Shown here: one piece after another, positions 1,136 through 50,431 of the stretch | How positions within the stretch are numbered: position 1 is the first letter of the stretch | Layout of the letters: each line of letters begins with the position of its first letter | Program-made: the position numbers and the translations under genes | The notes under the pieces: generated by a model | The model's database searches: none | Told to the model about the DNA's origin: nothing | Seen by the model: only the letters and a program-made list of their open reading frames with translations | Source of the DNA: a virus | Lineage: Duplodnaviria > Heunggongvirae > Uroviricota > Caudoviricetes | IMG/VR virus record: IMGVR_UViG_3300025392_000640 | Span: 37,214-101,213 of that record | Length of the DNA stretch: 64,000 bases | Strand: one strand, 5' to 3'

Positions 1136-1196
1136 TTGATTTTCAACACGTTAGCCGGGCGGTCATCTGGCGTGAGCTAACTAGTTGATACTCAAC
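1136..1196. repeat. Two copies of conserved TTGAnnnTCAACACGTTA palindromic element
   Basis: ttgattttcaacacgttagccgg (1136-1158) and ttgatactcaacacgtta (1179-1196); the same element recurs at about 23938, 23974, 29337, 29379, 34301, 34341, 38128, 38178, 38204, 50058 and 50350. Confidence 0.6.
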
Positions 1197-1360
1197 ACGT
1201 TATGGACCGTAGGGCTCACTCTATAACCCGCCCTCCACTCCCTAAAGTTACAAGCTTTTTTTGGTATTGCAAAACCGCTCATCACATTTAATTTTTTCTA
1301 ATATGAGCCGGCATACATATAGAAAATATCTAATATATTCTCTAATACTTTAAACCATTT

Positions 1361-1684
1361 CTAATAATTGGTATCTTTTGTTCGAACTAAACAATTCTTT
1401 AGCTTCTCTAATTCCTCTGCAGCCCCTGCTATGATTGCTTCTTGTTGGGCTATCTTATGTTCTAATAGATATATAGCCGCTTCCCTCTTTCCCCACTTGG
1501 TTGGAAATTGTAATCTATTCCCCACCGGCAGATATTCACCTCTTATCAGTTTTAGCCCATCCAAAGGTTGAACGATAACGGAAAGCTCTCCCGATTCGGA
1601 CTCTACTATTGAAGCTAAAGAATGTAAGGTACGATTAACTGCCACCTGTTGTGGTATTCCCTTAAACGCTTCCCCTGTACTCAT
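1361..1684 (-). CDS. hypothetical protein
   Basis: 107-aa ORF. Confidence 0.45.
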   Translation of the reverse strand: MSTGEAFKGIPQQVAVNRTLHSLASIVESESGELSVIVQPLDGLKLIRGEYLPVGNRLQFPTKWGKREAAIYLLEHKIAQQEAIIAGAAEELEKLKNCLVRTKDTNY

Positions 1685-1686
1685 AT

Positions 1687-2049
1687 CTATTTTGATTTCT
1701 TATAAGCCCTCTTAACTAACTTCTCATTCTCTCGGGCCTGTATTTCATAGGGATTATTCTTATACCCATATTTCAATTGATAGTGGTTATACCAACGAAA
1801 TGTTTGTTGTGCATGTGTCCATTCGTGCAATAAAGTTTTTTGGACTGATATCATTCGTTTACATTGTGACAAATTAATCCAAATAATTCCTTCCCAATCC
1901 CAATGTCCAGCTGATTCATTATTTATATCCCAATAAAATGCTATCCCAGTGCATTTACTTTCTCCTAATTTTTCGTGAGCCCAATTCCACAATTTATTAC
2001 AATCGAACTTCATACCTCTTTTGTTTGTTACTCTCATAAATATATACAA
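1687..2049 (-). CDS. ImmA/IrrE-like (DUF955, HExxH) small metallopeptidase-domain protein
   Basis: HEWTH motif followed by PYEIQARENE (E-x-E-A-x signature). Confidence 0.55.
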   Translation of the reverse strand: MYIFMRVTNKRGMKFDCNKLWNWAHEKLGESKCTGIAFYWDINNESAGHWDWEGIIWINLSQCKRMISVQKTLLHEWTHAQQTFRWYNHYQLKYGYKNNPYEIQARENEKLVKRAYKKSK

Positions 2050-2063
2050 TTGTTTTTACTATA

Positions 2064-2096
2064 CAAAGATACAAAAAATATCCGAGCTCACCAAAT
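2064..2096 (-). promoter_or_regulatory. Bacteroidetes-type promoter (-7 TAnnTTTG / -33 TTTG) for 1687..2049
   Basis: caaagatacaaaa...accaaat on + strand, i.e. TTTGGT-N-TTTTGTATCTTTG on the coding strand. Confidence 0.55.
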
Positions 2097-2489
2097 CTAA
2101 TCCCCATAAGGGTTGCATCGATTAGAGGATATCTAACGTGGCACACGCTTTCATTGAATATTCTCTAACGTAATGGGGGCTTAGGTTGCATGGCTTCTAA
2201 ATCTATCAAAATATATACAGAAAAATTTTGCCGTCTAACAAAGAATCCTTATATGCCTGCTTTCCTATCTAATATCTTTTGTCCTAAGTCTATCAATATT
2301 AAGAAAGTGTATAAATGTGGTAGAAAGTGTGTAAAAGTGGGAACGTGATGGACATCCATTTTTTAACCTCTATTCCTATCAATATTCACTACCCTATTGG
2401 ACCGGCTTGAATAAGGGGTCTTTTTGGAGTGAATAAACATCCGTGTAAAAATATTGTAAGTGGCTTGTTAGGATACCTCTATAAGGGAT

Positions 2490-2535
2490 TCTAAGGAGCA
2501 TTAAAAAGGAGTGCGGACCGAACCCACACTCCCAT
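2490..2535 (-). terminator. Rho-independent terminator downstream of 2557..2799
   Basis: Minus-strand hairpin GGAGTGTGGGTTCGGTCCGCACTCC followed by TTTTT. Confidence 0.6.
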
Positions 2536-2556
2536 TCATTTCACCATCCCAGCTCC

Positions 2557-2799
2557 TTAAACGGATTGGATTTCTTTTGTATCGAAGTTATAAATCCAAT
2601 GCCCTACGGGTTCGGTTTGTACATCATCCATAATAAAAAACTCGTATTCCGGCTCGGGGTTAAAGATTCCGTTTTGATGATATGAAGGGTATCCCCATTC
2701 TACTAACTTAGGATGTATTGTATTCCTTATAGCATCTACATCTCTAAAATTTGTAGGGAAACTATCTAAGATTCCTTTTAAGTTTTCATTTGTTATCAT
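2557..2799 (-). CDS. hypothetical protein
   Basis: 80-aa ORF. Confidence 0.45.
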   Translation of the reverse strand: MITNENLKGILDSFPTNFRDVDAIRNTIHPKLVEWGYPSYHQNGIFNPEPEYEFFIMDDVQTEPVGHWIYNFDTKEIQSV

Positions 2800-3396: not shown

Positions 3397-3594
3397 TTAT
3401 AGTGAATTTCGTTTCGTTATACTTGCTACCTTATATATCCCCTCTATTTTTCCTAACATAACTCTCCAATCCTCTATTATAACCTCTACATTACCCGATT
3501 GTGTGATATGAGCTTGATGAAATTGTTCTCTTAACTCTTTCACCGTCTTATATTCACCACTTTTAATCAATTCCTTTATTTCCTCTTTATTCAT
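3397..3594 (-). CDS. hypothetical protein
   Basis: 65-aa ORF. Confidence 0.4.
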   Translation of the reverse strand: MNKEEIKELIKSGEYKTVKELREQFHQAHITQSGNVEVIIEDWRVMLGKIEGIYKVASITKRNSL

Positions 3595-3869
3595 ACCAAA
3601 CCTTTTTACTTTAATAGCTGTTTAGGCTGGCTGTAACTCAAGCCACCATTGGATTAGCTCGTTATGAGTGGCTATTTTCTACATAATAAATACTATCAAG
3701 AAAAAATTCCCCTTCGACCCGATTGAACGATTGAGGATATAATACAAGGCTGAGGATATTATTTATATTATTTATTATCTTTGTTGTCCGAGCTTATACC
3801 TATTATAGCCAATATACATATTATTAGGTATATCCACTCGCATACCATTGTTAATACTTTCATACTATA

Positions 3870-11503: not shown

Positions 11504-11699
11504 ATGCTAATCCCAATAATTCAGTTTGAAGTTCTTGAAAATGCTTTTGTCTTTCAACTTCAGCTTTGAATTTATCCGGCGTTAATTCACTCAACTCAAC
11601 AATATCAAAATGCTGTGTTGGTATTGTAAACACTTGGTATCCACTATTTGTTTTACGAATAGTAATTCCATCCTCAATCCATTCTTTAAGATTTTCCAT
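11448..11699 (-). CDS. hypothetical protein
   Basis: 83-aa ORF. Confidence 0.4.
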   Translation of the reverse strand: MENLKEWIEDGITIRKTNSGYQVFTIPTQHFDIVELSELTPDKFKAEVERQKHFQELQTELLGLAFGKRVEEGLFDDLFEKMD

Positions 11700-13173
11700 A
11701 CTTTTGTTTTATTCTTTTTAAGAAATCAATTTCATCAATAAGTTTATCGTGTTTTTCATTTAATACATCTTCCATATTAGAATGCAAATCCAAAATAATA
11801 GAATTATCTTTCATAGAATCATAGGATTTTATAAATAAATTTTCATCTAAAATACCGTTACCATATCCAACGAGTCTCCAACCTGATGTAGAAAATACAC
11901 TTTCTTTTTTTCTATTAAAATTTAAACTTTCTTTTAAACCACTAATAGTACTAATTAGTTTTTTACTCATATATTTTTCATCACGATATCTATTCCAAAA
12001 TTCTGTATCGGTTCTTTTTGTAATGTAGTGATATTGTAAAAAATCAACAATATCATCATTCAGTTCTCCCAATGCCCAATTGTATTGACCCATATTATAA
12101 GGGTCTTTAAAATCAATATCAAATTTAGTTAATACTAATAATCCAATAATTACCATACCAATAGCAGTTGCTTCCAATGGTTCAACAAATCCGGTACTCA
12201 ATCCAACACCAATACAATTATTAATCCAATTGCTTTTATATCTACCAGGTTCAAAAGATATGGTTCGATTGCATTCAATTTCATGTCCTAATAAATTCTC
12301 AACTTCTTTTTTAGCTTCATCCGAATTTATATAATTGTTATCAAACACATAACCACATCCCCATCTACTTTGTAAAGGTATTTGCCATAACCAACCATAT
12401 TTCATAGCTATAGCCTTTGTGTATGTTGCAATATCAGTTTTGGATTGAGGTAATTGAAATGGTAATGCAGAATTAACTGTTAATCTATCTTTATATGATA
12501 TCCATTCTGTATTATATAATTTACCAATAATTAATCTTTTGAATCCGCTACAATCAAATACGAAATGGATATTTTCTACTTTTGTTTCATTTTCTAGCTC
12601 TATTGTTTTAATATCACCAAATCTATTTTGTACAAAATTAGTAATCACCCCTTCAATTCTTTTTACACCTCTACTTTCTGCAATTTTTTTAAAATAACTT
12701 GCTACTAAGTGGGCATCAAAATGAAATGAAAAATTGACCATTTGAGTATTATTTAATGAAATAGCAGATTTATTGTTATATGCCATATATTTAGATGCAA
12801 TCTTATCATTTAAATCATATCCATTTTTCATCAAAAACCCCCAATATTCACTATCACATATAGGTACATTATCTGGATTAGTTGAAAAGAAATCGTGAAT
12901 ATATTTTTTACCGTTACCATCCCAATTTTCAAAACTAACTCCTAATTTATGTGTTGCATTTGTTTCAACCATAAATTCATTATAATCTATTTTAACAAAT
13001 TGTAAAAAGTCCATCAATCTAGGAATACTACCTTCACCAGCACCCAATATACCAATATCTTCACTTTCAATTAAAGTTATATCAGCGCTACCATCATTAT
13101 ATAAATGCTGTGCCCATAATGCTGACATCCATCCAGCTGTTCCACCACCTACTATAACAATTTGTTTTTTCAT
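11686..13173 (-). CDS. Flavin-dependent (tryptophan-type) halogenase family protein
   Basis: N-terminal FAD site IVIVGGGTAGWMSA and the halogenase signature GWLWQIPL (WxWxIP). Confidence 0.8.
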   Translation of the reverse strand: MKKQIVIVGGGTAGWMSALWAQHLYNDGSADITLIESEDIGILGAGEGSIPRLMDFLQFVKIDYNEFMVETNATHKLGVSFENWDGNGKKYIHDFFSTNPDNVPICDSEYWGFLMKNGYDLNDKIASKYMAYNNKSAISLNNTQMVNFSFHFDAHLVASYFKKIAESRGVKRIEGVITNFVQNRFGDIKTIELENETKVENIHFVFDCSGFKRLIIGKLYNTEWISYKDRLTVNSALPFQLPQSKTDIATYTKAIAMKYGWLWQIPLQSRWGCGYVFDNNYINSDEAKKEVENLLGHEIECNRTISFEPGRYKSNWINNCIGVGLSTGFVEPLEATAIGMVIIGLLVLTKFDIDFKDPYNMGQYNWALGELNDDIVDFLQYHYITKRTDTEFWNRYRDEKYMSKKLISTISGLKESLNFNRKKESVFSTSGWRLVGYGNGILDENLFIKSYDSMKDNSIILDLHSNMEDVLNEKHDKLIDEIDFLKRIKQKYGKS

Positions 13174-29306: not shown

Positions 29307-29495
29307 TTTAAGGTAAAAATCTTTAAAAATTCTTTATTGATTATCAACACGTTAGCCGGATGTCCCAAAAACCCCACGTAACTCGTTGATAATCAATTTA
29401 ATACATATTAGCCACTTTTTAGCCCTTTTTAGGGGGGTCTAATGGGTTTTAAGGTCAATACCTAACCCAACCCGAAAGGACTTAAAAAAAGGGGT

Positions 29496-34249: not shown

Positions 34250-34281
34250 TAAAACTACGAATAATCCCCGAAACTGCCAAA
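34250..34281 (-). promoter_or_regulatory. Variant promoter with upstream palindromic elements at 34301-34320 and 34341-34365
   Basis: aaaactacgaataatccccgaaactgccaaat, then aaaattctttattgagaatcaatgagttac. Confidence 0.5.
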
Positions 34282-34475
34282 TTTGGCACAAAAATTCTTT
34301 ATTGAGAATCAATGAGTTACATATATGTTTTTTTATAATATCCTAACGTGTTGATTATCAATAAAGAATTTTATCCATTTTAAGGGTATTTTTAACCGAT
34401 TTTAGGGTGTCTACCTTATTTTGGGGTAAATACCCATTTTAGGGATAAAAAGGGGTAAAATACCCCTTATTTTCA

Positions 34476-37798: not shown

Positions 37799-38044
37799 TT
37801 ACTTTGTTTCATAGTTAGTACCTTTTACATAGGGAGCGCCCCATTTACCATTATCTAATTCAATCCATAACCAATTCAAATAGTCATCAGTTACACTACT
37901 TTGTAAATTCTCATTAAAGAATGTTAAAGCCTTAATAAACTTCATTCTTTGTTTAGCCAATTGAGGATTAATACTTACTTCAATCATAGCATCGTTTAAG
38001 TGTGAACCAACTACAATACCTAAATGTCTTTCAAAACTACTCAT
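37799..38044 (-). CDS. hypothetical protein
   Basis: 81-aa ORF. Confidence 0.4.
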   Translation of the reverse strand: MSSFERHLGIVVGSHLNDAMIEVSINPQLAKQRMKFIKALTFFNENLQSSVTDDYLNWLWIELDNGKWGAPYVKGTNYETK

Positions 38045-38066
38045 ATTTTTAATTTTTGTTACGATG

Positions 38067-38223
38067 TAAAGATACGAACATTTTTCATACTAACAAGCTT
38101 TTTTTCAATTATTTTTAAAAATTCTTTATTGAAAATCAACACGTTACGGGAGTGATTTTGGGGCAAAAAATAACCCATTGAAAATCAATGAGTTATGAAT
38201 GTGTTGAAAATCAATGAGTTACG
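38067..38223 (-). promoter_or_regulatory. Promoter (38067-38100) plus three tandem copies of the TTGAAAATCAAYRMGTTA element (38128, 38178, 38204)
   Basis: taaagatacgaaca...; ttgaaaatcaacacgttacgg, ttgaaaatcaatgagttatg, ttgaaaatcaatgagttacg. Confidence 0.55.
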
Positions 38224-38589: not shown

Positions 38590-39003
38590 TATGTTTTCTG
38601 TGTACCATTCCAATATCTCCTCACCAGCTTTTATATCCCTTAAAGCAAATCCTCTATCACTTAAATTTTGTCTTTCTCTATCAGGCCATGCAGAATTACA
38701 AAAACTAAATCCGTGGAATAGAAAATTTAATCCTTTATATAATCGTATTACTTTGAATCCACATTCATCATTAATAAAGTAGGCATCTAATAATTCGAAT
38801 ACTTCCTTTGGTATTAAATGTAATTTATCATTTGGTATAAGATATATCCCACTATCATATTCCCACGCTGGAAACACTCTATCACCTTTGGGTATATCTT
38901 TAATAGCAAATACACCAACGCCATTAATAGGTGAAACGCCAATCTTAGTTTTTATATTCTTACTTAAATGATATAGTACTTCTTCGGTTATATCCGTTTC
39001 CAT
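38569..39003 (-). CDS. SET-domain-like protein (putative protein lysine methyltransferase)
   Basis: GVGVFAIKDIPKGDRVFPAWEY at the N-terminus and ALRDIKAGEEILEWY at the C-terminus. Confidence 0.5.
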   Translation of the reverse strand: METDITEEVLYHLSKNIKTKIGVSPINGVGVFAIKDIPKGDRVFPAWEYDSGIYLIPNDKLHLIPKEVFELLDAYFINDECGFKVIRLYKGLNFLFHGFSFCNSAWPDRERQNLSDRGFALRDIKAGEEILEWYTENINLVDSK

Positions 39004-40514
39004 TATTCTTTAATATATTTAAAAAATTCTTCGTTAGTCATATATTCTTTATGTATCTTACCATATTCCTTTTCCATTAGTTTAGAAAAATAATAAGCTT
39101 TATCCAATTTATCGGCGGTTATTAATTCACGTTCAATCATTTTTTTATCTTTGAGTAAACCTGCCATTTCTAATATATGACACCATATTCCCCACCCACT
39201 CATACCATGCCCATCTTTAAAATCCAACATATTTAATAATCTATGTTTTGATATTTCAATAAGTTCTTTATTATAATCAGTTATTACCATTTCATTTTTA
39301 ATAAATTTCCAAAATGTAGTATCATTTCTACCAGACAAATAGTGCATTTGTAAAAGGTCTCTGGTATCATCAATCATCTTATTTACACCTTCATTATATT
39401 TTCTTTTGCTAATTTCGCATTTTATAGATTCATTTGATTTTAAATAATGATTTATAAAATTAGTAATTCCTATTAAGGATATATGAATAGATGTAGCTTG
39501 TAATGGTTCTAAAAAATGAGAAGCTAATCCAAATGATACAACATTATTATACCAAGTATTTTCATATCTACCAGCTTCAAATTTAATTTCTCTAATTGAA
39601 TCTATTTCTTGTCCTAGTTTTCTTTCTACCTCATCTATTGCTTTGCTTTTTGTTTGAAATCCATCACAATAAACATATCCATTTCCATATCTTTCCTGCA
39701 AAGGTATTTTCCACATCCAACCGGCATTCATTGTTTCTGCTAAAGTTTCAAATCTAACATTCTTAGATGTTATTTCAGTTGAAAATGGTATAGCTGTATT
39801 TACAGGTAAATTTTCTTTATAAGAAATCCATTTATTTTTTGTCTTACCTATTAATATTCTATTAAATCCACTACAATCAAACCACATATCAGCAGAAAGA
39901 TTTTGACCATTTGATAATTTAATATTTTTTACATATTCATTTTCATCAAAGTTTACATCAGTAATTTCACTATCTATTACTTTAACTCCAAACTTTAAAC
40001 AAATATCCTTAAAATATTTACCAACTTCATGTCCGTCAAAATGATATGAATATGTATTATGTCCTAATGTAAGTGCACCAGTTTCTCCTCTTTTTGTTTT
40101 TTTAGAAAATGGTGTAATTTTATTTTCTAATAAATGATATTGTAAAGAAGCCATATCACCTCTACCATTTTTTAATATAGAACCAAAGAATGCTATATCA
40201 ATATGATTGTGGGATGTCATTGATGCATTTATGGGCGAGTATGTATATTTACCATCACCTTTCCAATTTTTTAATTTAATTCCCAATTTAATAGTTCCCT
40301 TAGTTTTTTTAAGCATATCAACTTCATCAACTAAATTTTCAGGCCATTCTTGATTTATAAACCAAGGGAAAGAACCTGTTGAACCTTCACCCGCTCCAAT
40401 GATACCATATTTAGAACTTTCAATAACTGTCACTTCATGCCCTACAGTTTCTTTTATCAAAGTTGCTGCAGCTATCCAACCTGCCGTTCCACCACCTACT
40501 ATAACAATTTTCAT
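39003..40514 (-). CDS. Flavin-dependent (tryptophan-type) halogenase family protein, second copy
   Basis: KIVIVGGGTAGWIAA FAD motif and AGWMWKIPL (WxWxIP). Confidence 0.8.
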   Translation of the reverse strand: MKIVIVGGGTAGWIAAATLIKETVGHEVTVIESSKYGIIGAGEGSTGSFPWFINQEWPENLVDEVDMLKKTKGTIKLGIKLKNWKGDGKYTYSPINASMTSHNHIDIAFFGSILKNGRGDMASLQYHLLENKITPFSKKTKRGETGALTLGHNTYSYHFDGHEVGKYFKDICLKFGVKVIDSEITDVNFDENEYVKNIKLSNGQNLSADMWFDCSGFNRILIGKTKNKWISYKENLPVNTAIPFSTEITSKNVRFETLAETMNAGWMWKIPLQERYGNGYVYCDGFQTKSKAIDEVERKLGQEIDSIREIKFEAGRYENTWYNNVVSFGLASHFLEPLQATSIHISLIGITNFINHYLKSNESIKCEISKRKYNEGVNKMIDDTRDLLQMHYLSGRNDTTFWKFIKNEMVITDYNKELIEISKHRLLNMLDFKDGHGMSGWGIWCHILEMAGLLKDKKMIERELITADKLDKAYYFSKLMEKEYGKIHKEYMTNEEFFKYIKE

Positions 40515-43113: not shown

Positions 43114-43602
43114 CTATAACTTAACTAAATGGTCAGCCGCATAAGTTGCGATTGGACCTAATGATTTATATCTTACTTCATATCCCATACCTTCTACCAA
43201 ACCAACTGCTTGCCTAAACACTTCATTTGATTTATACTTTGGGTCTGGATTAATATCAATATCAATCCATCTTGGTTTTGGAATACCAGCTTCTTTTAAA
43301 AATTCTGCGGTTTCAATAGCGTACCATATTTCATTTAATAAACGAACTGAACGAGTGTATTCTCTTTCGGTTTTCCATCTTCTATATAAAACATGCGCAC
43401 CTTTCCCCTTACGATACAAAGCAACTACTACCGCATAGGTTGTTTTATCCGAATGATTTTGCGAATCACATCCAATTAGGATTTCAACATTGTGGTTTTC
43501 ATTTTCTTCCATGTACTTTTGGACATAAGGAACTAATTCTAATTCCTCTTTGTCATACAATCTTTTGTATTTCATAATAAGGGTTTTGTTGTTGTACCCC
43601 AA
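43114..43602 (-). CDS. YkuK/DUF458-like RNase H-fold protein
   Basis: ILIGCDSQNHSDKTTYAVVVALYRKGKGAH resembles the YkuK family core. Confidence 0.45.
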   Translation of the reverse strand: MGYNNKTLIMKYKRLYDKEELELVPYVQKYMEENENHNVEILIGCDSQNHSDKTTYAVVVALYRKGKGAHVLYRRWKTEREYTRSVRLLNEIWYAIETAEFLKEAGIPKPRWIDIDINPDPKYKSNEVFRQAVGLVEGMGYEVRYKSLGPIATYAADHLVKL

Positions 43603-43675
43603 AAGAGACTCGAACTCTTACATCTTACGATACCGGCTTCTAAGACCGGTGTGGCTACCATTACACCATCGGGGC
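43595..43675 (-). tRNA. tRNA-Leu (anticodon UAG)
   Basis: Hand-folded: acceptor GCCCCGA/TTGGGGT, anticodon loop CTTAGAA, long variable arm, T-loop GTTCGAGTC. Confidence 0.7.
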
Positions 43676-43690
43676 TATTTAAAAGAACTA

Positions 43691-43770
43691 CTGCTGTTAG
43701 AGCAGGATTCGAACCATGCAAAGGGAGATTCGGAAAGTAACACAATGCTTGCAAGCTGGTGGTCAACCCC
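43691..43770 (-). ncRNA. tRNA-like element with canonical GGTTCGAATCC T-loop motif but no foldable cloverleaf (pseudo-tRNA?)
   Basis: ggattcgaacc at 43706-43716; 3' hairpin CTGCTCTAACAGCAG plus U-rich tail; no acceptor pairing found. Confidence 0.3.
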
Positions 43771-43844
43771 ATATTACTTTTCTATTTCTTAATCCCTGCC
43801 CACGAGACGAGTGGGTGTGTTTGCCGAAGTCATAACTGAGATGA

Positions 43845-44069
43845 CTAATTTTCACCATCTAACAATTTATTATCTTTATTAATGTTAAATGTTGCATTAT
43901 GAAAGATTCTGATTTGGTCACTACGATAGTGCCTAACTATACCACCTTCACACAATACAACACACCAAATATCATTTTCCAACATCCCACTATCGGTAAC
44001 ATAAATAGCGTAACCATCTTTGTTACCCTCAACTACAACGGGTATTGGCTTTTGAAATTCTAACATCAT
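43845..44069 (-). CDS. hypothetical protein embedded in tRNA region
   Basis: 74-aa ORF. Confidence 0.4.
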   Translation of the reverse strand: MMLEFQKPIPVVVEGNKDGYAIYVTDSGMLENDIWCVVLCEGGIVRHYRSDQIRIFHNATFNINKDNKLLDGEN

Positions 44070-44082
44070 AATAGATAATTTG

Positions 44083-44170
44083 CGGAGAGTCAGGGATTCG
44101 AACCCCAGATACCGTTTCCAGTATGACGGTTTTCAAGACCGTTCCATTCAACCACTCTGGCAACTCTCCG
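44083..44170 (-). tRNA. tRNA-Ser (UGA)
   Basis: Acceptor GGAGAGT/ACTCTCC, anticodon loop CTTGAAA, long variable arm, T-loop GGTTCGAATCC. Confidence 0.8.
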
Positions 44171-44178
44171 TTTTTATA

Positions 44179-44436
44179 CTAATAGATATTATCTTCCTTA
44201 GAAATCCTAAAATCTATACTACTTTGCCTTCTTCTAGCTTCTTCTGCTTCTTTAACCCATCTAATCCAAGTTAAAGCAACATCAATAGGTGCTAAAATCC
44301 AAGCCATAACAATAACCATAATAGTATCTAACTCTGGTGATTGTGAAGTTACACTACCATCATATCTTTTATTCAAATTTTTAAATAGCTGATAAAAACA
44401 ATAGATAACACAAATAATGTAATAACCAATAAACAT
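44179..44436 (-). CDS. small membrane protein
   Basis: Track ORF 44179..44460 trimmed to the internal Met so the start lies downstream of the promoter. Confidence 0.4.
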   Translation of the reverse strand: MFIGYYIICVIYCFYQLFKNLNKRYDGSVTSQSPELDTIMVIVMAWILAPIDVALTWIRWVKEAEEARRRQSSIDFRISKEDNIY

Positions 44437-44456
44437 AACTTTCTTTTTTAATTTTA

Positions 44457-44490
44457 TCAAAGATACGATAATATTTTCACATTACCAAAT
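44457..44490 (-). promoter_or_regulatory. Bacteroidetes-type promoter
   Basis: caaagatacgataatattttcacattaccaaat. Confidence 0.55.
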
Positions 44491-44497
44491 CTTTTTG

Positions 44498-44568
44498 TTC
44501 CCCCTCAAGGATTCGAACCTCAACTATATGGACCAAAACCACATGTACTACCGTTATACTAAAGGGGA
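44498..44568 (-). tRNA. tRNA-Gln (UUG)
   Basis: U1-A72 acceptor TCCCCTT/AGGGGGA, anticodon loop TTTTGGT. Confidence 0.8.
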
Positions 44569-44709
44569 GTGTCTCAAGCATTCTACTTCCCGCAGTGCGA
44601 AATTGTATCTTACTTAGCCCATCGCTAGCGGTATGGGTACTTGAGTGTGTGAATGAAAAACATCTATTCTTCTTGCGGCCTGTTCACAATGGCCCACTTA
44701 TCTTTATCG

Positions 44710-44782
44710 AGCAGCGAAAGAGATTCGAACTCTCTCGTCCAGCTTGGAAGGCTGGCGTGCTACCATTGAACACCACCGCTGC
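44710..44782 (-). tRNA. tRNA-Gly (UCC)
   Basis: Acceptor GCAGCGG/TCGCTGC, anticodon loop CTTCCAA. Confidence 0.8.
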
Positions 44783-44890
44783 TTTTGTGTAGGTTTTTCT
44801 TTCACATTTAGCCCAAACACCAGTGAATCAATGTTTGGATTTTGAACCGAGTGCCCAATAAGGGGCTTTACAACCTACAAACTCTGTCAG

Positions 44891-44963
44891 AGCGGAAGAC
44901 CAGGCTCGAACTGGCCACCTATGCCTTGGCAAGGCATCGCTCTACCGAATGAGCTACTTCCGC
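44891..44963 (-). tRNA. tRNA-Gly (GCC)
   Basis: Acceptor GCGGAAG/CTTCCGC, anticodon loop TTGCCAA. Confidence 0.85.
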
Positions 44964-44971
44964 AATTTTTG

Positions 44972-45045
44972 TGGGAAAGACTGGGTTCGAACCAGTGACC
45001 TCAAAATTATGAGTTTTTTGCTCTAACCAACTGAGCTACATTCCC
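44972..45045 (-). tRNA. tRNA with CAU anticodon (elongator Met or Ile2/lysidine)
   Basis: Acceptor GGGAATG/CTTTCCC with one U-U mismatch, anticodon loop CTCATAA, all-AU anticodon stem. Confidence 0.7.
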
Positions 45046-45162
45046 AATAAAGATTATATTCATTCTGCCGTTAGTAGTCTATTTACCATTAACTACCACG
45101 TGTATCTAGTCAGACTTCTTTGGGGTTGGTATCGTTCCCTTCATATAATCTTTAAATAAGGT

Positions 45163-45252
45163 GCCGGTGGTGAGATTGGTTACTCACACGAAGTCCCTTT
45201 CGGATGAATCGCCCTTTCTAGTTCGGATGCGTCTAAATTCCGCCACACCGGC
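45163..45252 (-). ncRNA. tRNA-like structured element (perfect 7-bp terminal helix GCCGGTG/CACCGGC, non-canonical T-loop TAACCAAT)
   Basis: Hand fold: terminal helix, D-like hairpin GCG-GAATTTAGA-CGC, hairpin CGAAAGGGACTTCG, T-like stem GTGAG/CTCAC; no standard anticodon arm. Confidence 0.3.
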
Positions 45253-45269
45253 ATATATCTTTTAATCTT

Positions 45270-45569
45270 TTAATCTTTTAATTCATTAATAAGACTATCT
45301 ATCATATCATCACCTAAAGAAATTTGATGTAGGTTTTTTATTTTTAAATAGTTTTCTAAATACATTGATGCGGTTACTAACTTGTCACCTTTTTGTATCT
45401 CTATTTTAATAATACCGCTTGTGTTTGTTGTTTCGGATGGTGTGATTTTTTTAGTCAAACTTTCAATTTTTTCGGCTATCGTATCCAAATCATTTTTATC
45501 TATTTCAACAGTATTAACATCATCTCCATATCCATAATCTATGAGTATGTTTTTAATTTTTTCTTTCAT
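45270..45569 (-). CDS. hypothetical protein
   Basis: Track ORF 45270..45608 overlaps tRNA-Ala; start moved to the internal Met (MKEKIKN). Confidence 0.4.
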   Translation of the reverse strand: MKEKIKNILIDYGYGDDVNTVEIDKNDLDTIAEKIESLTKKITPSETTNTSGIIKIEIQKGDKLVTASMYLENYLKIKNLHQISLGDDMIDSLINELKD

Positions 45570-45584
45570 AACTTTTTGTTTAGT

Positions 45585-45657
45585 GGAGAATGAGGGAGTC
45601 GAACCCACGACCTTCTGAATGCAAATCAGACGCTCTAGCCAACTGAGCTAATTCCCC
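45585..45657 (-). tRNA. tRNA-Ala (UGC)
   Basis: Acceptor GGGGAAT (G3-U70 wobble present), anticodon loop TTTGCAT. Confidence 0.8.
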
Positions 45658-45667
45658 ATATTTATCG

Positions 45668-45753
45668 TGCCTCAAGTGGGAGTCGAACCCACACGAACTT
45701 TTCGGTTCACAGGATTTTAAGTCCTGCGTGGCTACCAATTACACCATCGAGGC
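45668..45753 (-). tRNA. tRNA-Leu (UAA)
   Basis: Acceptor GCCTCGA/TTGAGGC, anticodon loop CTTAAAA, long variable arm. Confidence 0.8.
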
Positions 45754-45759
45754 AGTTTG

Positions 45760-45831
45760 TAGTCCGGCGTGGAATCGAACCACGAACCAAATCTTAGAAG
45801 GATTTTGTTATATCCATTTAACTACCAGACC
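45760..45831 (-). tRNA. tRNA-Arg (UCU)
   Basis: Anticodon loop CTTCTAA, T-arm CGTGG-TTCGATT-CCACG. Confidence 0.8.
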
Positions 45832-46027
45832 AAAAAATAGATGAGAGGGTTATTACGTCTAATAACTCCAAAGTTTCTACCGGCCGTTTATGGAATATGC
45901 GCACTGACCATAAACTAAGCTTTCGTCTGCATCTCATCTCAAAAAACATCAAATGGGATTCCAACCCATACTTTCGGGCAATTACTCCCGATGTGCTAAC
46001 GTCAGTTACACTATTGATATTTTTATG

Positions 46028-46101
46028 CGGAACGTAGGGAACTCGAATCCCTGACCTCTACAGTGACAGTGTAGCATTCTAACCAACTGAACTAACGCTC
46101 C
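46028..46101 (-). tRNA. tRNA-Asp (GUC)
   Basis: Acceptor GGAGCGT/ACGTTCC, anticodon loop CTGTCAC. Confidence 0.8.
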
Positions 46102-46176
46102 GTAATTACTAATTCATCTTTATTTGCACCACCACGTCATGCGTAGGTTGACATATACCTCAATGAATTAGTTCTG

Positions 46177-46250
46177 AGCCTAAGGTGAGATTCGAACTCA
46201 CGACTCCGAAATTACAAATTTCGTACTCTGGCCAACTGAGTTACTCAGGC
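46177..46250 (-). tRNA. tRNA-Thr (UGU)
   Basis: Acceptor GCCTGAG/CTTAGGC, anticodon loop TTTGTAA. Confidence 0.8.
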
Positions 46251-46258
46251 TTATATTG

Positions 46259-46330
46259 TAGTCCCGAGCGGAATCGAACCGCCCTTTTCAGGATGAAAAC
46301 CTAACGTCCTAACCGATAGACGACGGGACC
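46259..46330 (-). tRNA. tRNA-Glu (UUC)
   Basis: Anticodon loop TTTTCAT, T-arm GGCGG-TTCGATT-CCGCT. Confidence 0.8.
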
Positions 46331-46350
46331 ATATTATTTAAAAGAACATT

Positions 46351-46384
46351 ACAAATATACGATAATTTTTTCAAACTACCAAAT
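46351..46384 (-). promoter_or_regulatory. Bacteroidetes-type promoter immediately upstream of tRNA-Glu and the downstream tRNA block
   Basis: acaaatatacgataattttttcaaactaccaaat. Confidence 0.55.
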
Positions 46385-46393
46385 TTGTTTTTG

Positions 46394-46482
46394 CGGAGAG
46401 CGGAGTATTCGAAACTCGCCCAACTTAATGGGTTCTCGTTTAGCAAACGAGCGGGGAACACCTTTGCCCTCCTTCACTCTCC
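46394..46482 (-). tRNA. tRNA-Ser (GCU)
   Basis: Acceptor GGAGAGT/GCTCTCC, anticodon loop TTGCTAA, long variable arm. Confidence 0.75.
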
Positions 46483-46484
46483 AA

Positions 46485-46559
46485 TGGTGTGACCGAAGAG
46501 AATCGAACTCTTACATAAAGTGCCACAAACTTTCGCCCTACCATTAGGCTACGGCCACC
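46485..46559 (-). tRNA. tRNA-His (GUG) with encoded G-1 and 3' CCA
   Basis: GGTGGCCG... 5' end (extra G-1), anticodon loop TTGTGGC, 3' ...CGGTCACACCA. Confidence 0.8.
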
Positions 46560-46565
46560 ATGTTG

Positions 46566-46640
46566 TAGCGTGAACAAGATTCGAACTTGTGTCTGAGCCT
46601 TATGAGAGCTCCGTAAGAAAACCAACTCTACCATCACGCT
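46566..46640 (-). tRNA. tRNA with CAU anticodon (Met/Ile2), second copy
   Basis: A1-U72 acceptor AGCGTGA/TCACGCT, anticodon loop CTCATAA. Confidence 0.75.
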
Positions 46641-46707
46641 ATTTGTGGAATTGAACCACCTTCCCAGCTTAATGCCGGGCGATACATCCAGTATCCTTCA
46701 CCGGTTG
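46641..46707 (-). ncRNA. Truncated tRNA-like fragment (T-arm plus anticodon-like hairpin, no 3' acceptor strand)
   Basis: GGTGGTTCAATTCCAC T-arm abuts the 5' end of the adjacent tRNA; hairpin CCCGG-CATTAAG-CTGGG. Confidence 0.3.
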
Positions 46708-46778
46708 AGGCGTGTATTGGAATCGAACCAATCTAAAAGGATTTGCAGTCCTCCACCTAGCCACTCGGACAACTCGCC
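46708..46778 (-). tRNA. tRNA-Cys (GCA)
   Basis: Acceptor GGCGAGT (one A-A mismatch), anticodon arm GAGGA-CTGCAAA-TCCTT, T-arm ATTGG-TTCGATT-CCAAT; overall similar to bacterial tRNA-Cys. Confidence 0.65.
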
Positions 46779-47321
46779 TTATCGGTTTAGTTTATTAATA
46801 CATTCATCTATCTTATCTCTCAATCTTCCGCCACGTCCAAAATCACCATCAACTTGTACATGCCTCCACATTGGAATACGATGTTTCATCCATTTGAACT
46901 CTGCACTCAATTTCATATCATCAATTGCAATCCAGTTACTAATCTTATTATCCTTAACCCATTTTACAATCTGATGTGCTCTCTCAAACTCTAAGGATGG
47001 ATTACTCATCTTATTCCAAATTCCCAGCTTTCTACTACTCATATGTGTTGTGATATCAATCAATGGAGCATGAATACCAAACTCAATAAATGTATCACTC
47101 ATTTGCCTAAGAGTAAAGTGCAACTTCCAATCTGATGATAATACTAATTCTGCATTAGTCTTGTCACAAATTTCTTGCAATGCTTCACAATCCTCTTTTA
47201 CTAATGGGTAAGGTATTGTAAACTCATTCATAGTATTTTCGTTTATCTTCACTTTACCATCATCCCATGTTGCCCAAGCTAATGGCCCATCAACATCAAT
47301 AAAAATAATTTTCTTTCTCAT
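46779..47321 (-). CDS. HAD-superfamily phosphatase-like protein (embedded in tRNA cluster)
   Basis: N-terminal IIFIDVDGPL (HAD motif I) and WIAIDD (motif IV-like). Confidence 0.55.
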   Translation of the reverse strand: MRKKIIFIDVDGPLAWATWDDGKVKINENTMNEFTIPYPLVKEDCEALQEICDKTNAELVLSSDWKLHFTLRQMSDTFIEFGIHAPLIDITTHMSSRKLGIWNKMSNPSLEFERAHQIVKWVKDNKISNWIAIDDMKLSAEFKWMKHRIPMWRHVQVDGDFGRGGRLRDKIDECINKLNR

Positions 47322-47347
47322 AACTTTAATTTTTAATTTTTTAATTG

Positions 47348-47421
47348 TACTCTCTAAGAGACTCGAACTCCTAACCCCTTCGTCCGTAGCGAAGTGCTCT
47401 AATCCATTGAGCTAAGAGAGC
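47348..47421 (-). tRNA. tRNA-Arg (ACG)
   Basis: Anticodon arm CTTCG-CTACGGA-CGAAG. Confidence 0.8.
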
Positions 47422-47427
47422 TATTTG

Positions 47428-47496
47428 CACGCAGTGAAGGAATCGAACCCTCTCGTAAAGATTTGGAGTCTTTTTAGCTACCATAGCCTACCACGT
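47428..47496 (-). tRNA. tRNA-Trp (CCA)
   Basis: A1-U72 acceptor ACGTGGT, anticodon arm AAAGA-CTCCAAA-TCTTT; short D region. Confidence 0.65.
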
Positions 47497-47503
47497 ATGT
47501 TTG

Positions 47504-47577
47504 TTGGAATAGCGAGATTCGAACTTGCCACCTTCTCGGTATCAGCGAGATGCTCTAACCAAATGAGCTATATTCCA
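47504..47577 (-). tRNA. tRNA-Ile (GAU)
   Basis: Acceptor TGGAATA/TATTCCA, anticodon loop CTGATAC. Confidence 0.75.
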
Positions 47578-47587
47578 ATTTTTAAAG

Positions 47588-47662
47588 TAGGGTAAAGAGG
47601 ACTCGAACCTCCACGATGTCTTGCTCCCAAAGCAAGCGGCCTAGCCATTGGCCCATTACCCT
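47588..47662 (-). tRNA. tRNA-Pro (UGG)
   Basis: Acceptor AGGGTAA/TTACCCT, anticodon loop TTTGGGA. Confidence 0.8.
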
Positions 47663-47668
47663 ATATTG

Positions 47669-47742
47669 TTCCCCCGGTAGGATTCGAACCTACAACCCAC
47701 CGGGTAAAAGCCGGTTACTCTAGCCAATTGAGCTACAAGGGA
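47669..47742 (-). tRNA. tRNA-Lys (UUU)
   Basis: Anticodon arm ACCGG-CTTTTAC-CCGGT, T-arm GTAGG-TTCGAAT-CCTAC. Confidence 0.8.
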
Positions 47743-47792
47743 TTCTTTTGTCACTCTTGTCACTTTCCATAATCATTGTTTTTAATTGTTAG

Positions 47793-47864
47793 TGGTAATG
47801 AGTGGAATCGAACCACTGCTACTAAGTCTTCAGCCTAGCGCTCTACCAACTGAGCTACATCACC
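47793..47864 (-). tRNA. tRNA-Phe (GAA)
   Basis: Acceptor GGTGATG/CATTACC, anticodon loop CTGAAGA. Confidence 0.85.
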
Positions 47865-47928
47865 TTGCCTTTTTTAGCGTTTTTGAATAGAACGCAAGGA
47901 CAGTACGACCTGAAAACTATTAGGGTTG

Positions 47929-48009
47929 TGGGAGTAAGAAGACTCGAACTTCTGAAGCCGATGGCGTTTGATTTACAGTCAAATGTGATTGCCGCTACAC
48001 GATACTCCC
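47929..48009 (-). tRNA. tRNA-Tyr (GUA)
   Basis: Acceptor GGGAGTA/TACTCCC, anticodon loop CTGTAAA, long variable arm. Confidence 0.8.
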
Positions 48010-48014
48010 AATTG

Positions 48015-48086
48015 TAGAAGTGGAGAATTATGATATCCCGTCCTCTTGGATGTAAGCCAAGCGCTCTCCCTCTGAGCTACACTTCT
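48015..48086 (-). tRNA. tRNA-Val (UAC) with non-canonical T-loop
   Basis: Perfect acceptor AGAAGTG/CACTTCT, D-arm GCTC-AGAGGGA-GAGC, anticodon loop CTTACAT; T-loop ATCATAA lacks TTC. Confidence 0.6.
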
Positions 48087-48114
48087 ATTTTCCACAATGT
48101 CAAAGAACCAAATG

Positions 48115-48187
48115 CGTTAGTGATAGGATTCGAACCTATGGCCACTTGATTAACAGTCAAGAGCTCTACCAGCTGAGCTACACCAAC
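48115..48187 (-). tRNA. tRNA-Asn (GUU)
   Basis: Acceptor GTTGGTG/CACTAAC, anticodon loop CTGTTAA. Confidence 0.85.
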
Positions 48188-48199
48188 ATTTATTTACAA

Positions 48200-48247
48200 A
48201 CATCCCAAAAACAAAAAACCTCTAACTTTTTTATCGGTTAGAGGTCT
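48200..48247 (-). terminator. Rho-independent terminator (minus strand) just upstream of the tRNA cluster
   Basis: Hairpin cctctaac/gttagagg; minus strand has stem followed by TTTTTTGTTTTTGGG. Confidence 0.55.
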
Positions 48248-48261
48248 TTCAATATTGTTAT

Positions 48262-48430
48262 AAAATTTTACACTTTATCCCCAATTATCATCCTCTAACT
48301 TCGTACTAATATAATCCACTTTGCCTAAATTTGCTTGTGCCGGATTACTTATCGTACTAAACATACGAATCCCACACCATTCATTTCTCAATGTAGGTTG
48401 CGAACAATTTGTATGTAGTGTTAAAGTTTT
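48262..48430 (-). CDS. small hypothetical protein (below track threshold)
   Basis: ~55-codon minus ORF MKTLTLHTNCSQPTLRNEW... ending before the terminator. Confidence 0.3.
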
Positions 48431-48574
48431 CATCTTTGTTATGTTAATAAGTATATAATAATTTTATTTTCAGTTTTTTTAATTCTTATAAGCCTAAATC
48501 GGGAAGTATATTGCTATACTCCCCTCTCTAAGTTGTAATAAAAATTAAGATATGAAACGAACAACCTTTCAGTT

Positions 48575-48665
48575 GTTAGTAGAGCGGGACCAATGATTCG
48601 AACATCATCCTCTCACCTGGTCGGTAAGTGTGCTACCATTACACCAATTCCGCTTATGTGGAAAG
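48575..48665 (-). ncRNA. tRNA-like/pseudo-tRNA (T-arm TGATG-TTCGAAT-CATTG, acceptor with mismatch, aberrant anticodon loop)
   Basis: Hand fold; a degenerate partial copy of its 5' half (gtgtgctac.attacac) recurs at 48915-48950. Confidence 0.3.
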
Positions 48666-49902
48666 TTTTTCGAGTTGGAGAGGAACTTTCCGAGCGCTGC
48701 CGAAACCCCATAATACATTTTCGTATTGATTACTTTGCTTTAAGCCTTTTACAGCTTTGGCGAAATCCAATCTAAACCACATTAGGCTTCCTACTTTTAA
48801 GTTTCTAGTTTAAGTCCCAAACCAACTTGCTCTCACTAATGCGAACACAATGTTAAACAGACTACGATGAGCGGTTAAAGGTTCTGCCCCCCTCCTCTCC
48901 ACTGGAATGTGAAGTGTGCTACTATTACACTAAAACCGCTTATAAATGGATGAGAATACTCCAATGGGTGATTCAGCTTTAGAAGGATTATTGAGTTCCC
49001 TTCGTTTCCACTTCCTTTTGAGAAGTACCAAATCAATGCAGGTCATTATAGATAACCACTCTTAAAGTTGTAACTTACTCACCTATTACTCCCCTTATTC
49101 AATCCTGCCGAACTGATTCAACCTTGCGGGTCTATAAGCTTTTCGTAGATATCACATCCGCCTTGCGAGCGTTTGTGGCTGGGAACAACTCCCAACTATG
49201 TATGCACCTTTCGGTTACAACTGATGAACACTTTTGCTTTATGTTTATTTATAGTTTTTTACGCCGAAGTAAAAATAAAGTTTTGGTTCGTAGATTGATT
49301 CAGGTAGCGGTTCATCACCAGCTCTGTCCCCTTTTGAAGAACAGAATACTATACTACCCAATGCGTTATCTCAACGCCATACTTCAAGTCATCTTCATCA
49401 ATAGGGATTGGTGTCCCACATTGAAGGATAGTAACGGCACCACCCGTACACAGTCTTACCTTACGTCTTTTCAGATAGCTTGGTGTTAAGACCACTTTGG
49501 TATTGAATCACGCAATAGTAAAAAGGGATTAGCTTTTTATATCTTACATAAATCCTATGAGTTATTCTTATTGCTGTTCCCAGCTCAACTAAGGAATCTA
49601 CAGTTCCCTAGTCATCCCAACTCGTCAATGATAGTGTTACCCCCACCTACAAAGCCAGAATGATATCTCACTTGCCTACTCAAGCTCATAAGTCCACAGA
49701 CCTATAAACCGCAGAATGTTTAACCAAACATCCCACTTTATCCTACTTTCGTAGTTTATTTAACGACCATAGGCGGCCGTTTGTTCACTATATAACACAA
49801 GGTTATTATGTGAAGTATTTTTAATAATTTAAAGAACTAATTTGATTCTCAATTTTGTTTTCTGGTCAAACCAATCAACTACTTTATTTTTGAATCTTAG
49901 TA

Positions 49903-50337
49903 AAGATACGAAGAATATTTTATTCCACCAAATCTTTTTTTATTTTTGTTGAAACATTTTCGGCTGTGTTTACTTACACCATTTATACTTCCTACTTCTG
50001 AATCAACTTAGTAAAGATACGATAAATTTTTCAATCTACCAAATCTTTTTTTAACTTATTGATAATCAACAAGTTAGTTAAGATATCCGGCTTTCTTCCC
50101 TATTGGATAGGTCACTCAATCGGTTTTATTATTGATGGCTTCAACCTTAACTTTGTTAAAGATACGATAAATATTTCAATCTACCAAATCTTTTTTTGTT
50201 GCGGGGGATGGATTCGAACCACCGACCTAAAGGTTATGAGCCTTCCGAGCTACCTCTGCTCTACCCCACGATATATAAAGAACTTTTATCTCTTTTGATT
50301 TAATCAAAGATACGAATAAATTCCGAATCTACCAAAT
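49903..50337 (-). promoter_or_regulatory. Array of four tandem promoter copies (49903-49933, 50013-50044, 50157-50189, 50305-50337) interleaved with palindromic elements and a tRNA
   Basis: taaagatacgaagaat...ccaccaaat; taaagatacgataaat...ctaccaaat (twice); caaagatacgaataaa...ctaccaaat. Confidence 0.55.
50199..50270 (-). tRNA. Initiator-type tRNA-fMet (CAU)
   Basis: C1-A72 mismatch; CGTGGGGTAGAGCAG...CTCATAA...GGTCGGTGGTTCGAATCCATCCCCCGCAA closely parallels bacterial tRNA-fMet. Confidence 0.75.
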
Positions 50338-50431
50338 CTTTTTTAAGTCATTGAAAATCAATGAGTTATAAACATAGGATTTATAAGTATATGTAAATAT
50401 ACAAAAAGTATCCGAATTTACAAAATTTATT

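Follow-up and report, generated by a model that had tools for sequence, protein, structure and literature searches.

At some enterobacterial and phage promoters, integration host factor (IHF) raises or gates initiation by bending the DNA. IHF sites carry the consensus WATCAANNNNTTR with an A-tract in the other half, have two kinks 9 bp apart and a footprint of more than 25 bp (bioRxiv 10.1101/382655), and form part of the pSC101, R6K and P1 origins and of oriC (PMC4980987). The Bacteroidetes have classical HU/IHF-like proteins, including BHFa, a host factor for CTnDOT integration, and a large lineage-specific expansion of HU (PMC5499826, PMC6606824). Few cis-acting elements beyond the −33/−7 promoter are known in Bacteroidota and their phages, in which transcription control is poorly mapped. 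Here we describe one such element in a large phage of the Bacteroidota type, IMG/VR virus record IMGVR_UViG_3300025392_000640 (Caudoviricetes), within a stretch of 64,000 nucleotides (positions 37,214 to 101,213 of the record; hereafter the window). The element is a 25-bp interrupted palindrome, TAAC-N3-TTGA-N3-TCAA-N3-GTTA (the box), which stands upstream of one class of promoters and whose half-sites have the form of the IHF consensus. We tentatively regard it as a candidate docking site for a host bending protein of the HU/IHF (DNABII) family that would boost these promoters.

The box consists of four 4-bp blocks spaced 7 bp apart. A scan of the window at up to three mismatches over the 16 specified bases gave 15 accepted copies in seven non-coding regions (Table 1), five of them perfect in all 16 bases (starting at 1129, 1178, 23931, 38171 and 50052) and four one-sided (29330, 34295, 34344 and 38122). 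A further match at 37133, with three mismatches and a broken core, was judged to be due to chance, and a second motif lying in the same spacers, TTTTAGGG, shows no enrichment. A sequence-only reading of the window had pointed to a recurring inverted-repeat core, and this core, TTGANAATCAA, occurs 14 times against 0.59 expected, a number reached in none of 100 shuffles. The sites which that reading listed each hold a copy, in a register off by 1–7 nt, but two copies had been missed, at 1000-1024 and 1050-1074. Its 29-nt consensus occurs four times at up to three mismatches against none expected and describes only the one-sided subtype, the true unit being the 25-bp palindrome. The flank AAAATTCTTTA, taken as general, is found in only the four one-sided copies, and GCCGG, noted as a frequent flank, merely belongs to the spacer of about 24 bp between paired copies, which is not conserved.

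As the sequence-only reading had stated, the element is always non-coding, all 15 copies lying inside the non-genic 15.7% of the window (P about 2e-6 for seven regions). The copies are not remnants of a longer duplicated segment. When the seven regions are aligned, conservation is confined to the boxes, an A-rich tract, the −33 and −7 elements and a short leader, and the spacers separating paired boxes are unrelated from region to region.

Read outward from the centre, each half-site has the form W-A-T-C-A-A-N4-T-T-A, which is the IHF consensus. All 15 window copies contain an exact WATCAANNNNTTR. The window as a whole holds 25 matches to it, against 11.4 ± 3.3 expected; 17 lie in boxes, and the other eight fit chance. 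Across 288 distinct copies, selected at up to two mismatches to the block pattern, the IHF-consensus positions are near-invariant. All 12 independent one-sided copies, drawn from the window and seven viral contigs, have their second half replaced by an A4/T-rich tract (AAAAnTTnTTTA), a weak test in that the register differs somewhat from that of lambda H′ and the genomes are A+T-rich. In the pair at 34295 and 34344 the consensus halves point towards each other, with the A/T tracts on the outside.

Set beside known IHF sites (lambda attP H′, the pSC101, R6K and P1 origins, oriC and IHF-stimulated promoters), the box is alike in its half-sites, which match the consensus including the 4-nt gap, in the A/T tract of its one-sided copies and in its length, 25 bp being about the core contact region. 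It also occupies positions typical of IHF in its architectural role, upstream of promoters and beside the iterons and AT-rich region of Rep_3 plasmid origins. In contrast to known IHF sites, the box is a full palindrome in which two consensus elements share one central base, has an additional conserved C4 and G22 and occurs in close-packed 25-bp arrays. Its range also differs, being that of the phages and bacteria of the Fibrobacterota–Chlorobiota–Bacteroidota (FCB) group, in which only HU/IHF-like proteins such as BHFa are known and true IHF alpha/beta has not been described (PMC5499826, PMC6606824). The dyad symmetry had earlier suggested a dimeric helix-turn-helix regulator. A dyad-symmetric site for a DNA-binding protein agrees with what we find, but nothing indicates a helix-turn-helix; because the blocks lie 7 bp apart and the halves carry the IHF consensus, a minor-groove binder of the HU/IHF type suits the box better.

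Promoters of the Bacteroidota type, TTTGGTAGnTTC...TTCGTATCTTTG (−33 TTTG, −7 TAnnTTTG), are strongly conserved on the minus strand and occur in about 21 intergenic regions of the window. In six of the seven box regions the promoter-nearest copy ends 7, 8, 13, 14, 24 or 24 nt upstream of the minus-strand −33 TTTG, with its centre 20–37 bp upstream of −33, which bears out the proposed position just upstream of the −33 box. The four copies of the seventh region (1000-1202) lie upstream of a weaker promoter at about 942-975. Some 15 equally good window promoters have no box. In related low-G+C viral contigs, box centres cluster 20–46 bp upstream of −33, with peaks near 21, 27–28, 32–33 and 37–39 bp, and 22 of 50 box clusters have an outward-reading promoter match within 70 bp compared with 3.8% of random positions, an 11-fold enrichment.

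The box-linked promoters form a separate class, whose −7 box is sub-consensus. Their −7 reads TATCTTTA, then yTATRTAA, and that of box-free promoters TAT(A/C)TTTGT. Of 30 box-linked promoters, nine have the final G of the consensus (the end of TTTG), compared with 42 of 68 box-free ones (p = 0.0045); these counts include related contigs and hence are not fully independent. A separate promoter class is compatible with the temporal-class control that the sequence-only reading had proposed, and with conditional control. Box-linked promoters also share a short conserved leader (AAAGnnA..ATATG).

The box is not confined to this phage but is shared by unrelated phages, plasmid origins and bacterial chromosomes. 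Viral contigs were scanned for the exact pattern, and copies were then counted at up to two mismatches. At least 119 loci match exactly, and at least 74 contigs, spanning 28–57% G+C, are multi-copy (two or more), with up to 15 copies in 14 kb. A block-swapped control palindrome of identical composition gives 62 loci in all viral contigs, each of them single-copy. Start-to-start distances between paired viral copies peak sharply at 25 bp, where the boxes directly abut, and at 49–51 bp. G+C-richer contigs have perfect arms, TAACTCGTTGA-TAC-TCAACGAGTTA, and a 25-bp spacer that is G+C-rich, alike within a contig and different between contigs. On the coding strand of two such contigs, a gene is followed by a canonical terminator (seen in L043), a box pair, an A-rich tract, a sigma-70-like promoter (clear in L018) and the next gene. 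The L018 promoters, at 2880-2915 and 3575-3615 (49% G+C), read TTGCGN-N17-TATACT with an ATG only 6 nt past the −10 box, which suggests leaderless mRNAs.

Bacterial genomes, one per species, were scanned with a stricter 20-base version of the box. It matches 101 loci against roughly one by chance, an estimate for random sequence. Almost all are in Fibrobacter, Bacteroidota (Flavobacteriaceae, Saprospiraceae, Microscillaceae, Cytophagaceae and others) or Lentisphaeria, with single matches in a few other phyla; the neighbouring genes at these loci share no function. One Microscillaceae genome has dense, dispersed boxes, 5–10 per 8 kb, that keep only TAA-N4-TTGATWATCAA-N4-TTA, and the N4 stretches are not complementary. 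A BLAST search of a plasmid collection with a 30-mer returned mostly noise. Four plasmid-like Saprospiraceae contigs each have a single box exactly between an iteron array and an AT-rich stretch, beside a gene identified as Rep_3 in L130, with homologues in the remaining contigs. Among the four are three unrelated iteron sequences, and the pairing of the same box with different initiators argues for a host factor. A host factor is also the best of the options that the sequence-only reading had offered; a phage-specific activator or repressor, another of them, is unlikely for an element found in unrelated phages, plasmid origins and chromosomes.

If the box is indeed a high-affinity docking site on duplex DNA for a bending protein, the binder would be a host HU/IHF (DNABII) protein or a functional equivalent conserved in the Fibrobacterota–Bacteroidota group; the HU/IHF-like proteins and expanded HU set of the Bacteroidetes supply candidates. 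The half-site W-ATCAA-N4-TTA would act as an IHF-type recognition element, which the full palindrome would present in both orientations; the one-sided copies, with one half swapped for an A/T tract, would resemble classical IHF sites. One to four boxes, 20–37 bp upstream of −33, would serve promoters of the host RNA polymerase with a sub-consensus −7, and the bound protein would sharply bend the upstream DNA and so raise initiation or gate it conditionally. Plasmids would use the same box at their origins, next to iterons. The sequences themselves show how the box is built, its enrichment, its link to promoters of a distinct class, its distribution and its freedom from hairpin constraint; which protein binds it, that the DNA is bent and which way transcription is shifted are what we infer from these arrangements.

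Several observations weigh against this proposal. Classical IHF sites are asymmetric, with a full footprint of about 35 bp, whereas most copies of the box are symmetric and are often packed at 25–26 bp, tighter than that footprint. The two ATCAA elements lie one base apart, so that one dimer could use either half but not both canonically, and the CA/TG steps are 7 bp apart compared with 9 bp between the IHF kinks. C4 and G22, and often TC../..GA, are conserved outside the IHF consensus. The box centres, at roughly −56 to −73, are nearer to the promoter than at most known IHF-activated promoters, and the promoter-class counts carry the partial dependence given above. A promoter-like hexamer seems to stand before the pair rather than after it in some viral contigs of higher G+C, and roughly one in four bacterial copies is a perfect hairpin with a T-run, for example after tRNA genes, and looks like an ordinary terminator. 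In L080 (240-7400) and L065 (4594-5950), both at 42% G+C, a TTGACA-like hexamer stands, on the strand as read, at a fixed 33–34 nt before the first palindrome of nearly every pair, sometimes within a terminator-like hairpin, and the pair may there lie downstream of a promoter.

The conserved C4/G22 and TC/GA positions, which exceed the IHF consensus, would be expected of an operator for a dedicated dimeric transcription factor outside the HU/IHF family. Such a factor, a global host regulator of the FCB group or one borne by mobile elements, could turn these promoters on or off, with two dimers binding cooperatively where boxes are paired. In its favour are the strong conservation of the palindrome and the independence of its half-sites, pairs at a fixed spacing of 25 or 50 bp, tight distances upstream of −33 and a distinct promoter class with a weaker −7, typical of activator-dependent promoters. 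However, the 7-bp block spacing is unfit for two helix-turn-helix units in successive major grooves, the neighbours at bacterial loci have no common function, and occurrence in unrelated phages, chromosomes and plasmids with different initiators suits an architectural factor better. A dedicated regulator explains the extra specificity and the paired sites and fits the plasmid origins and chromosome-wide spread less well; we consider it a serious rival, though less likely than the bending protein. Sites of the FNR/CRP family, TTGAT-N4-ATCAA, share the half-site letters TTGAT/ATCAA and the place upstream of promoters. They differ from the box in spacing, which is N1 rather than N4 in the box, so that its halves are three bases closer, and in lacking its conserved outer blocks 7 bp further out. 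FNR/CRP sites (TTGAT-N4-ATCAA or TGTGA-N6-TCACA) are ruled out by the N1/N3 spacing of every window copy.

A search for a binder encoded near the box gave little. The window contains no HU/IHF gene, and a weak HU-like match at 50432-51133 is an S-adenosylmethionine (SAM) lyase. Among the 25 Pfam families listed, of 40 found in the 147 window open reading frames (ORFs), none is a DNA-binding family, which also counts against a dedicated regulator. Genes directly downstream of box-linked promoters have no informative domains. HU genes occur at only 2 of the 119 listed viral loci, and a search for relatives returned only the query's own contig. PhoH is the most widely shared neighbour at the viral loci but is a common marker gene and was set aside as a box-linked binder; other shared neighbours are NT5C, HD and GP88.

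Palindromes of this kind could also act as hairpins, either as RNA stem-loops that end or stabilise the upstream transcript or as DNA cruciforms. In the window, the predicted RNA fold is −2.2 kcal/mol or weaker in 9 of the 15 copies, although their conserved blocks are intact, and only three reach −8 kcal/mol. Watson–Crick pairs in the arms are equal on either strand, and G-U pairs are about equal (10 and 12), without bias. Downstream of the boxes the coding strand has A-runs instead of U-runs. An intrinsic terminator, with a stable G+C-containing hairpin and a U-run, was accordingly rejected for the window, and no Rfam family matches the boxes, either in the window or at five loci rich in them. 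Across 51 multi-copy viral loci, arms swapped between copies of the same locus are as complementary as those of the real copies, so there is no surplus of complementary arm pairs, and conservation tracks the 4-bp blocks rather than pairing. The sequence of two independent half-sites is conserved and their pairing is not, which argues for a symmetric protein site on duplex DNA rather than an RNA structure or terminator.

Outside the window a hairpin is easier to picture. G+C-richer viral contigs have perfect 11-bp stems with 3-nt loops, although in L043 a canonical terminator already precedes the box pair. In Flavobacteriaceae chromosomes perfect copies stand 1–17 nt past tRNA genes and have T-runs behind them; among bacterial copies 26% have such a T-run, compared with 5.7% of controls, and compensatory variants occur in L136. 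Covariation in the bacterial loci was left unused, since the search pattern had demanded a perfect palindrome and was hence biased. Taken with the window copies, a general hairpin function seems very improbable.

The gene neighbourhoods point to shuffling of modules. Relatives of this phage carry the same genes but in a thoroughly altered order, with box–promoter–gene modules kept: the box pair is retained upstream of the homologue of 23484-23861 in L099 and the box upstream of that of 28901-29251 in L044, and in L104, L112 and L084 a box stands upstream of the homologue of 32641-33084, which is box-less in the window. The boxes might accordingly be primarily recombination substrates, similar to integron attC sites or to promoter-early stem-loop (PeSL) cassettes, that excise, insert or shuffle promoter–gene modules, with any role in transcription secondary. 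The persistent modules would fit, as would the outer AAC...GTT, which we take to resemble the conserved triplets of attC. However, no recombinase is linked to the boxes, and attC sites are asymmetric, folded and 57–141 nt long, whereas the box is symmetric and 25 bp.

The PeSL cassettes of T4-type phages (Arbiol et al. 2010; Comeau et al. 2014; PMC4122927) offer the closer parallel. They are conserved composite cassettes between the small ORFs of hyperplastic regions, stand just upstream of host-type promoters and mediate modular gene shuffling between relatives (PMC4122927). The small ORFs of the window likewise form a hyperplastic region, the phage carries T4-superfamily-like genes, and the boxes share both this location and the shuffling. 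In contrast to the box, the PeSL stem-loop is a terminator whose sequence is group-specific and has no protein-binding consensus; the box keeps its sequence across very different phages and bacteria, does not keep its pairing and has no U-run. With 9 of 15 copies unfolded, no coding-strand U-run and arms that do not co-vary, the box was rejected as a PeSL terminator stem-loop. Recombination as the primary role would leave the conservation of the box in plasmid origins and chromosomes unexplained, and shuffling by short homology needs no special site; we think it improbable. Recombination at these cassettes is likely a by-product. On the bending-protein proposal it would probably be a side effect, the box–promoter–leader cassettes serving as short homologies at which promoter–gene modules shuffle between related phages.

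The iterated copies had also been proposed as iterons of a phage replication origin. In L014 (6400-6480) and L033 (about 399-420) two perfect DnaA boxes (TGTGGATAAgtTGTGGATAA) lie directly against a box pair, and a degenerate pair lies among CTATCCA repeats in Bacteroides phage BT638P6. DnaA boxes are, however, only twofold enriched near boxes and all four cases come from L014 and L033, so that we treat the linkage as anecdotal. The window copies are palindromes rather than direct repeats and are spread over 50 kb at seven loci, each by a promoter, and the true iterons of the plasmid-like contigs are other sequences beside the box. We therefore reject an iteron role for the window; as a general explanation it is scarcely credible. 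The box pair and DnaA boxes of L014 and L033 lie just upstream of a conserved promoter. The BT638P6 locus (L120 2630-3553, record positions 1-925) is the non-coding end of the genome. It contains CTATCCA six times (0.34 expected), a degenerate pair of boxes at a distance of 64 bp and a 102-bp tandem repeat in four copies, and has the look of an origin or packaging region.

Two further systems invite comparison with a bending-protein site. Bacillus phage SPO1 encodes TF1, a protein of the HU family that has preferred sites near early promoters and needs hydroxymethyluracil DNA. TF1 has been described as an HU-like phage protein (PMC6606824), and its sites resemble the proposed role of the box in placing an HU/IHF-family protein at specific sites by phage promoters. 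They differ in that TF1 is phage-encoded, whereas this window has no HU gene and the box also occurs in chromosomes and plasmids. The repetitive extragenic palindromic (REP) elements and bacterial interspersed mosaic elements (BIMEs) of enterobacteria, including the forms with IHF sites (RIP/RIB), are likewise dispersed intergenic palindromes, often at gene ends and some with an IHF site. The box reaches a similar density in the Microscillaceae genome, where a repeated unit of about 100 bp holds two boxes 50 bp apart. REP elements, however, are species-specific and G+C-rich and have the IHF site between them, whereas the IHF-like consensus of the box lies inside the palindrome itself and is conserved across phyla.

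Most likely, then, the box functions as an architectural-protein site upstream of promoters and at origins, which is a known kind of function; its palindromic form, phyletic range and systematic use by phages appear to be new. Full-text literature searches for the box sequence returned only primers, and no description of the box was found among the full texts covered. A bolder and distinctly speculative version would make it an HU/IHF-type palindromic 25-bp site spanning the FCB superphylum, perhaps that of an expanded Bacteroidota HU paralogue, which phages use as a portable enhancer of one promoter class and whose cassettes double as joints for module exchange. As a bending-protein site, the box would be evidence that IHF-like site-specific bending is much older and wider than the proteobacterial IHF paradigm. 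Conserved from Fibrobacter to Flavobacteriia, the box would give a handle for finding its reader protein and would mark one promoter class in metagenomic phage genomes. It is also a candidate part for genetic tools in Bacteroidota, as an upstream enhancer or an accessory site at origins.

Table 1. Box copies and box-linked promoters in the window. Mismatches are counted over the 16 specified bases; distances between pair members are start to start.
Feature	Position	Strand	Details
Box	1000-1024		3 mismatches; left outer block TTGT; right half AATCAACCTGTTA, an exact IHF-consensus match
Box	1050-1074		1 mismatch; both halves match WATCAANNNNTTR
Box	1129-1153		Perfect (TAACTCATTGATTTTCAACACGTTA); pair with 1178 at 49 bp, G+C-rich 24-bp spacer
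Box	1178-1202		Perfect (TAACTAGTTGATACTCAACACGTTA)
Box	23931-23955		Perfect; promoter-nearest; ends 14 nt upstream of −33 TTTG
Box	23967-23991		2 mismatches; distal pair member, 36 bp
Box	29330-29354		One-sided; promoter-nearest; consensus half TATCAACACGTTA, A/T-tract half AAAAATTCTTTA
Box	29379-29403		2 mismatches; distal pair member, 49 bp
Box	34295-34319		One-sided; promoter-nearest; AAAATTCTTTA and TTGAGAATCAATGAGTTA
Box	34344-34368		One-sided; opposite orientation; 49 bp from 34295
Box	38122-38146		One-sided; promoter-nearest
Box	38171-38195		Perfect; 49 bp from 38122
Box	38197-38221		2 mismatches; packed against 38171, 26 bp
Box	50052-50076		Perfect; ends 8 nt upstream of −33; both halves equal the IHF consensus
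Box	50344-50368		1 mismatch; ends 7 nt upstream of −33
Core only	49842-49852		TTGAGAATCAA; outer blocks absent; doubtful, a chance match or decayed copy
Promoter	942-975	−	Weak Bacteroidota type; −7 CGTATCTTAG, −33 ATTGC; downstream of the four copies at 1000-1202
Promoter	23885-23916	−	TTTGGTAG..N..TCGTATCTTTAC; operon from 23861, including DNA ligase gene 21692-22855
Promoter	29274-29305	−	TTTGGTAG..TTGTAGTTTTGG; gene 28901-29251
Promoter	34250-34281	−	TTTGGCAG..TCGTAGTTTTAC; gene 33937-34230
Promoter	38066-38097	−	Variant, CTTGTTAG..TTCGTATCTTTAC; gene 37799-38044
Promoter	50012-50043	−	…TATCTTTAC; no ORF behind
Promoter	50305-50336	−	tRNA-Met (50198-50270)

The window has a G+C content of 31%, about 150 mostly small ORFs and a block of 25–26 tRNA genes, and every convincing gene lies on the minus strand. 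Megablast of 12 kb of it against deposited phages gave no DNA-level match, and its protein matches (PhoH, DNA ligase, tryptophan halogenase) are all below 46% identity, so that this phage has neither a cultured relative nor a literature of its own. Identical genes are present in lake metagenomes, and many of the ORFs have homologues in uncultured viral contigs of 50–280 kb. The auxiliary genes are those of large marine and freshwater myoviruses and include a Kyano_Gp96-like protein, a T4-type RNA ligase and a DNA ligase; the PhoH-type neighbours in related contigs belong to the same typical set. The weak promoter at 942-975 leads into a 34-residue hydrophobic ORF (924 down to 820) and then the Kyano_Gp96-like gene (454-753). 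Host-like auxiliary genes are plentiful: two tryptophan-halogenase-like proteins, the SAM lyase (of the anti-restriction type) and GTP cyclohydrolase I are encoded at 11686-13173, 39003-40514, 50432-51133 and 62641-63267. The 147 ORFs also include heme oxygenase, ferredoxin-dependent bilin reductase, NifU, an Fe-S assembly protein, GroES, cyclophilin and ribosomal protein S21.

The tRNA cluster (43594-50270, minus strand) has 25 genes according to ARAGORN and 26 according to Rfam, covering most amino acids, with conserved promoters scattered through it at 44458, 46352, 49901, 50012, 50157 and 50305. Since no ORF follows it, the promoter at 50012-50043 possibly drives a short non-coding transcript. 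Conserved promoters at 49901-49932, 50012-50043 and 50157-50188 have no minus-strand ORF of at least 50 residues behind them, and this region (49760-50200), which also holds the lone box core at 49842, may encode short non-coding transcripts. Within the tRNA block, downstream of the box-linked and box-free promoters at 49901-50336, lies a full-length GOLLD RNA (Rfam RF02032, 304.8 bits, E = 2.8e-86) at 48947-49361 on the minus strand.

A different association with tRNA is seen on the chromosome of Ca. Arcticimaribacter forsetii (L136, 1900-6300), where sequences matching tRNA-Asp stand in tandem, none of them called as a tRNA by ARAGORN. Behind each repeat come a box-like hairpin with a T-run and then a piece similar to the 3′ end of a tRNA (GGTTCGAATCC...). 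In L127, L135, L169 and L218 the single tRNA-Asp genes are arranged in the same way, and some of the hairpins in this group show compensatory changes (TTCA...TGAA).

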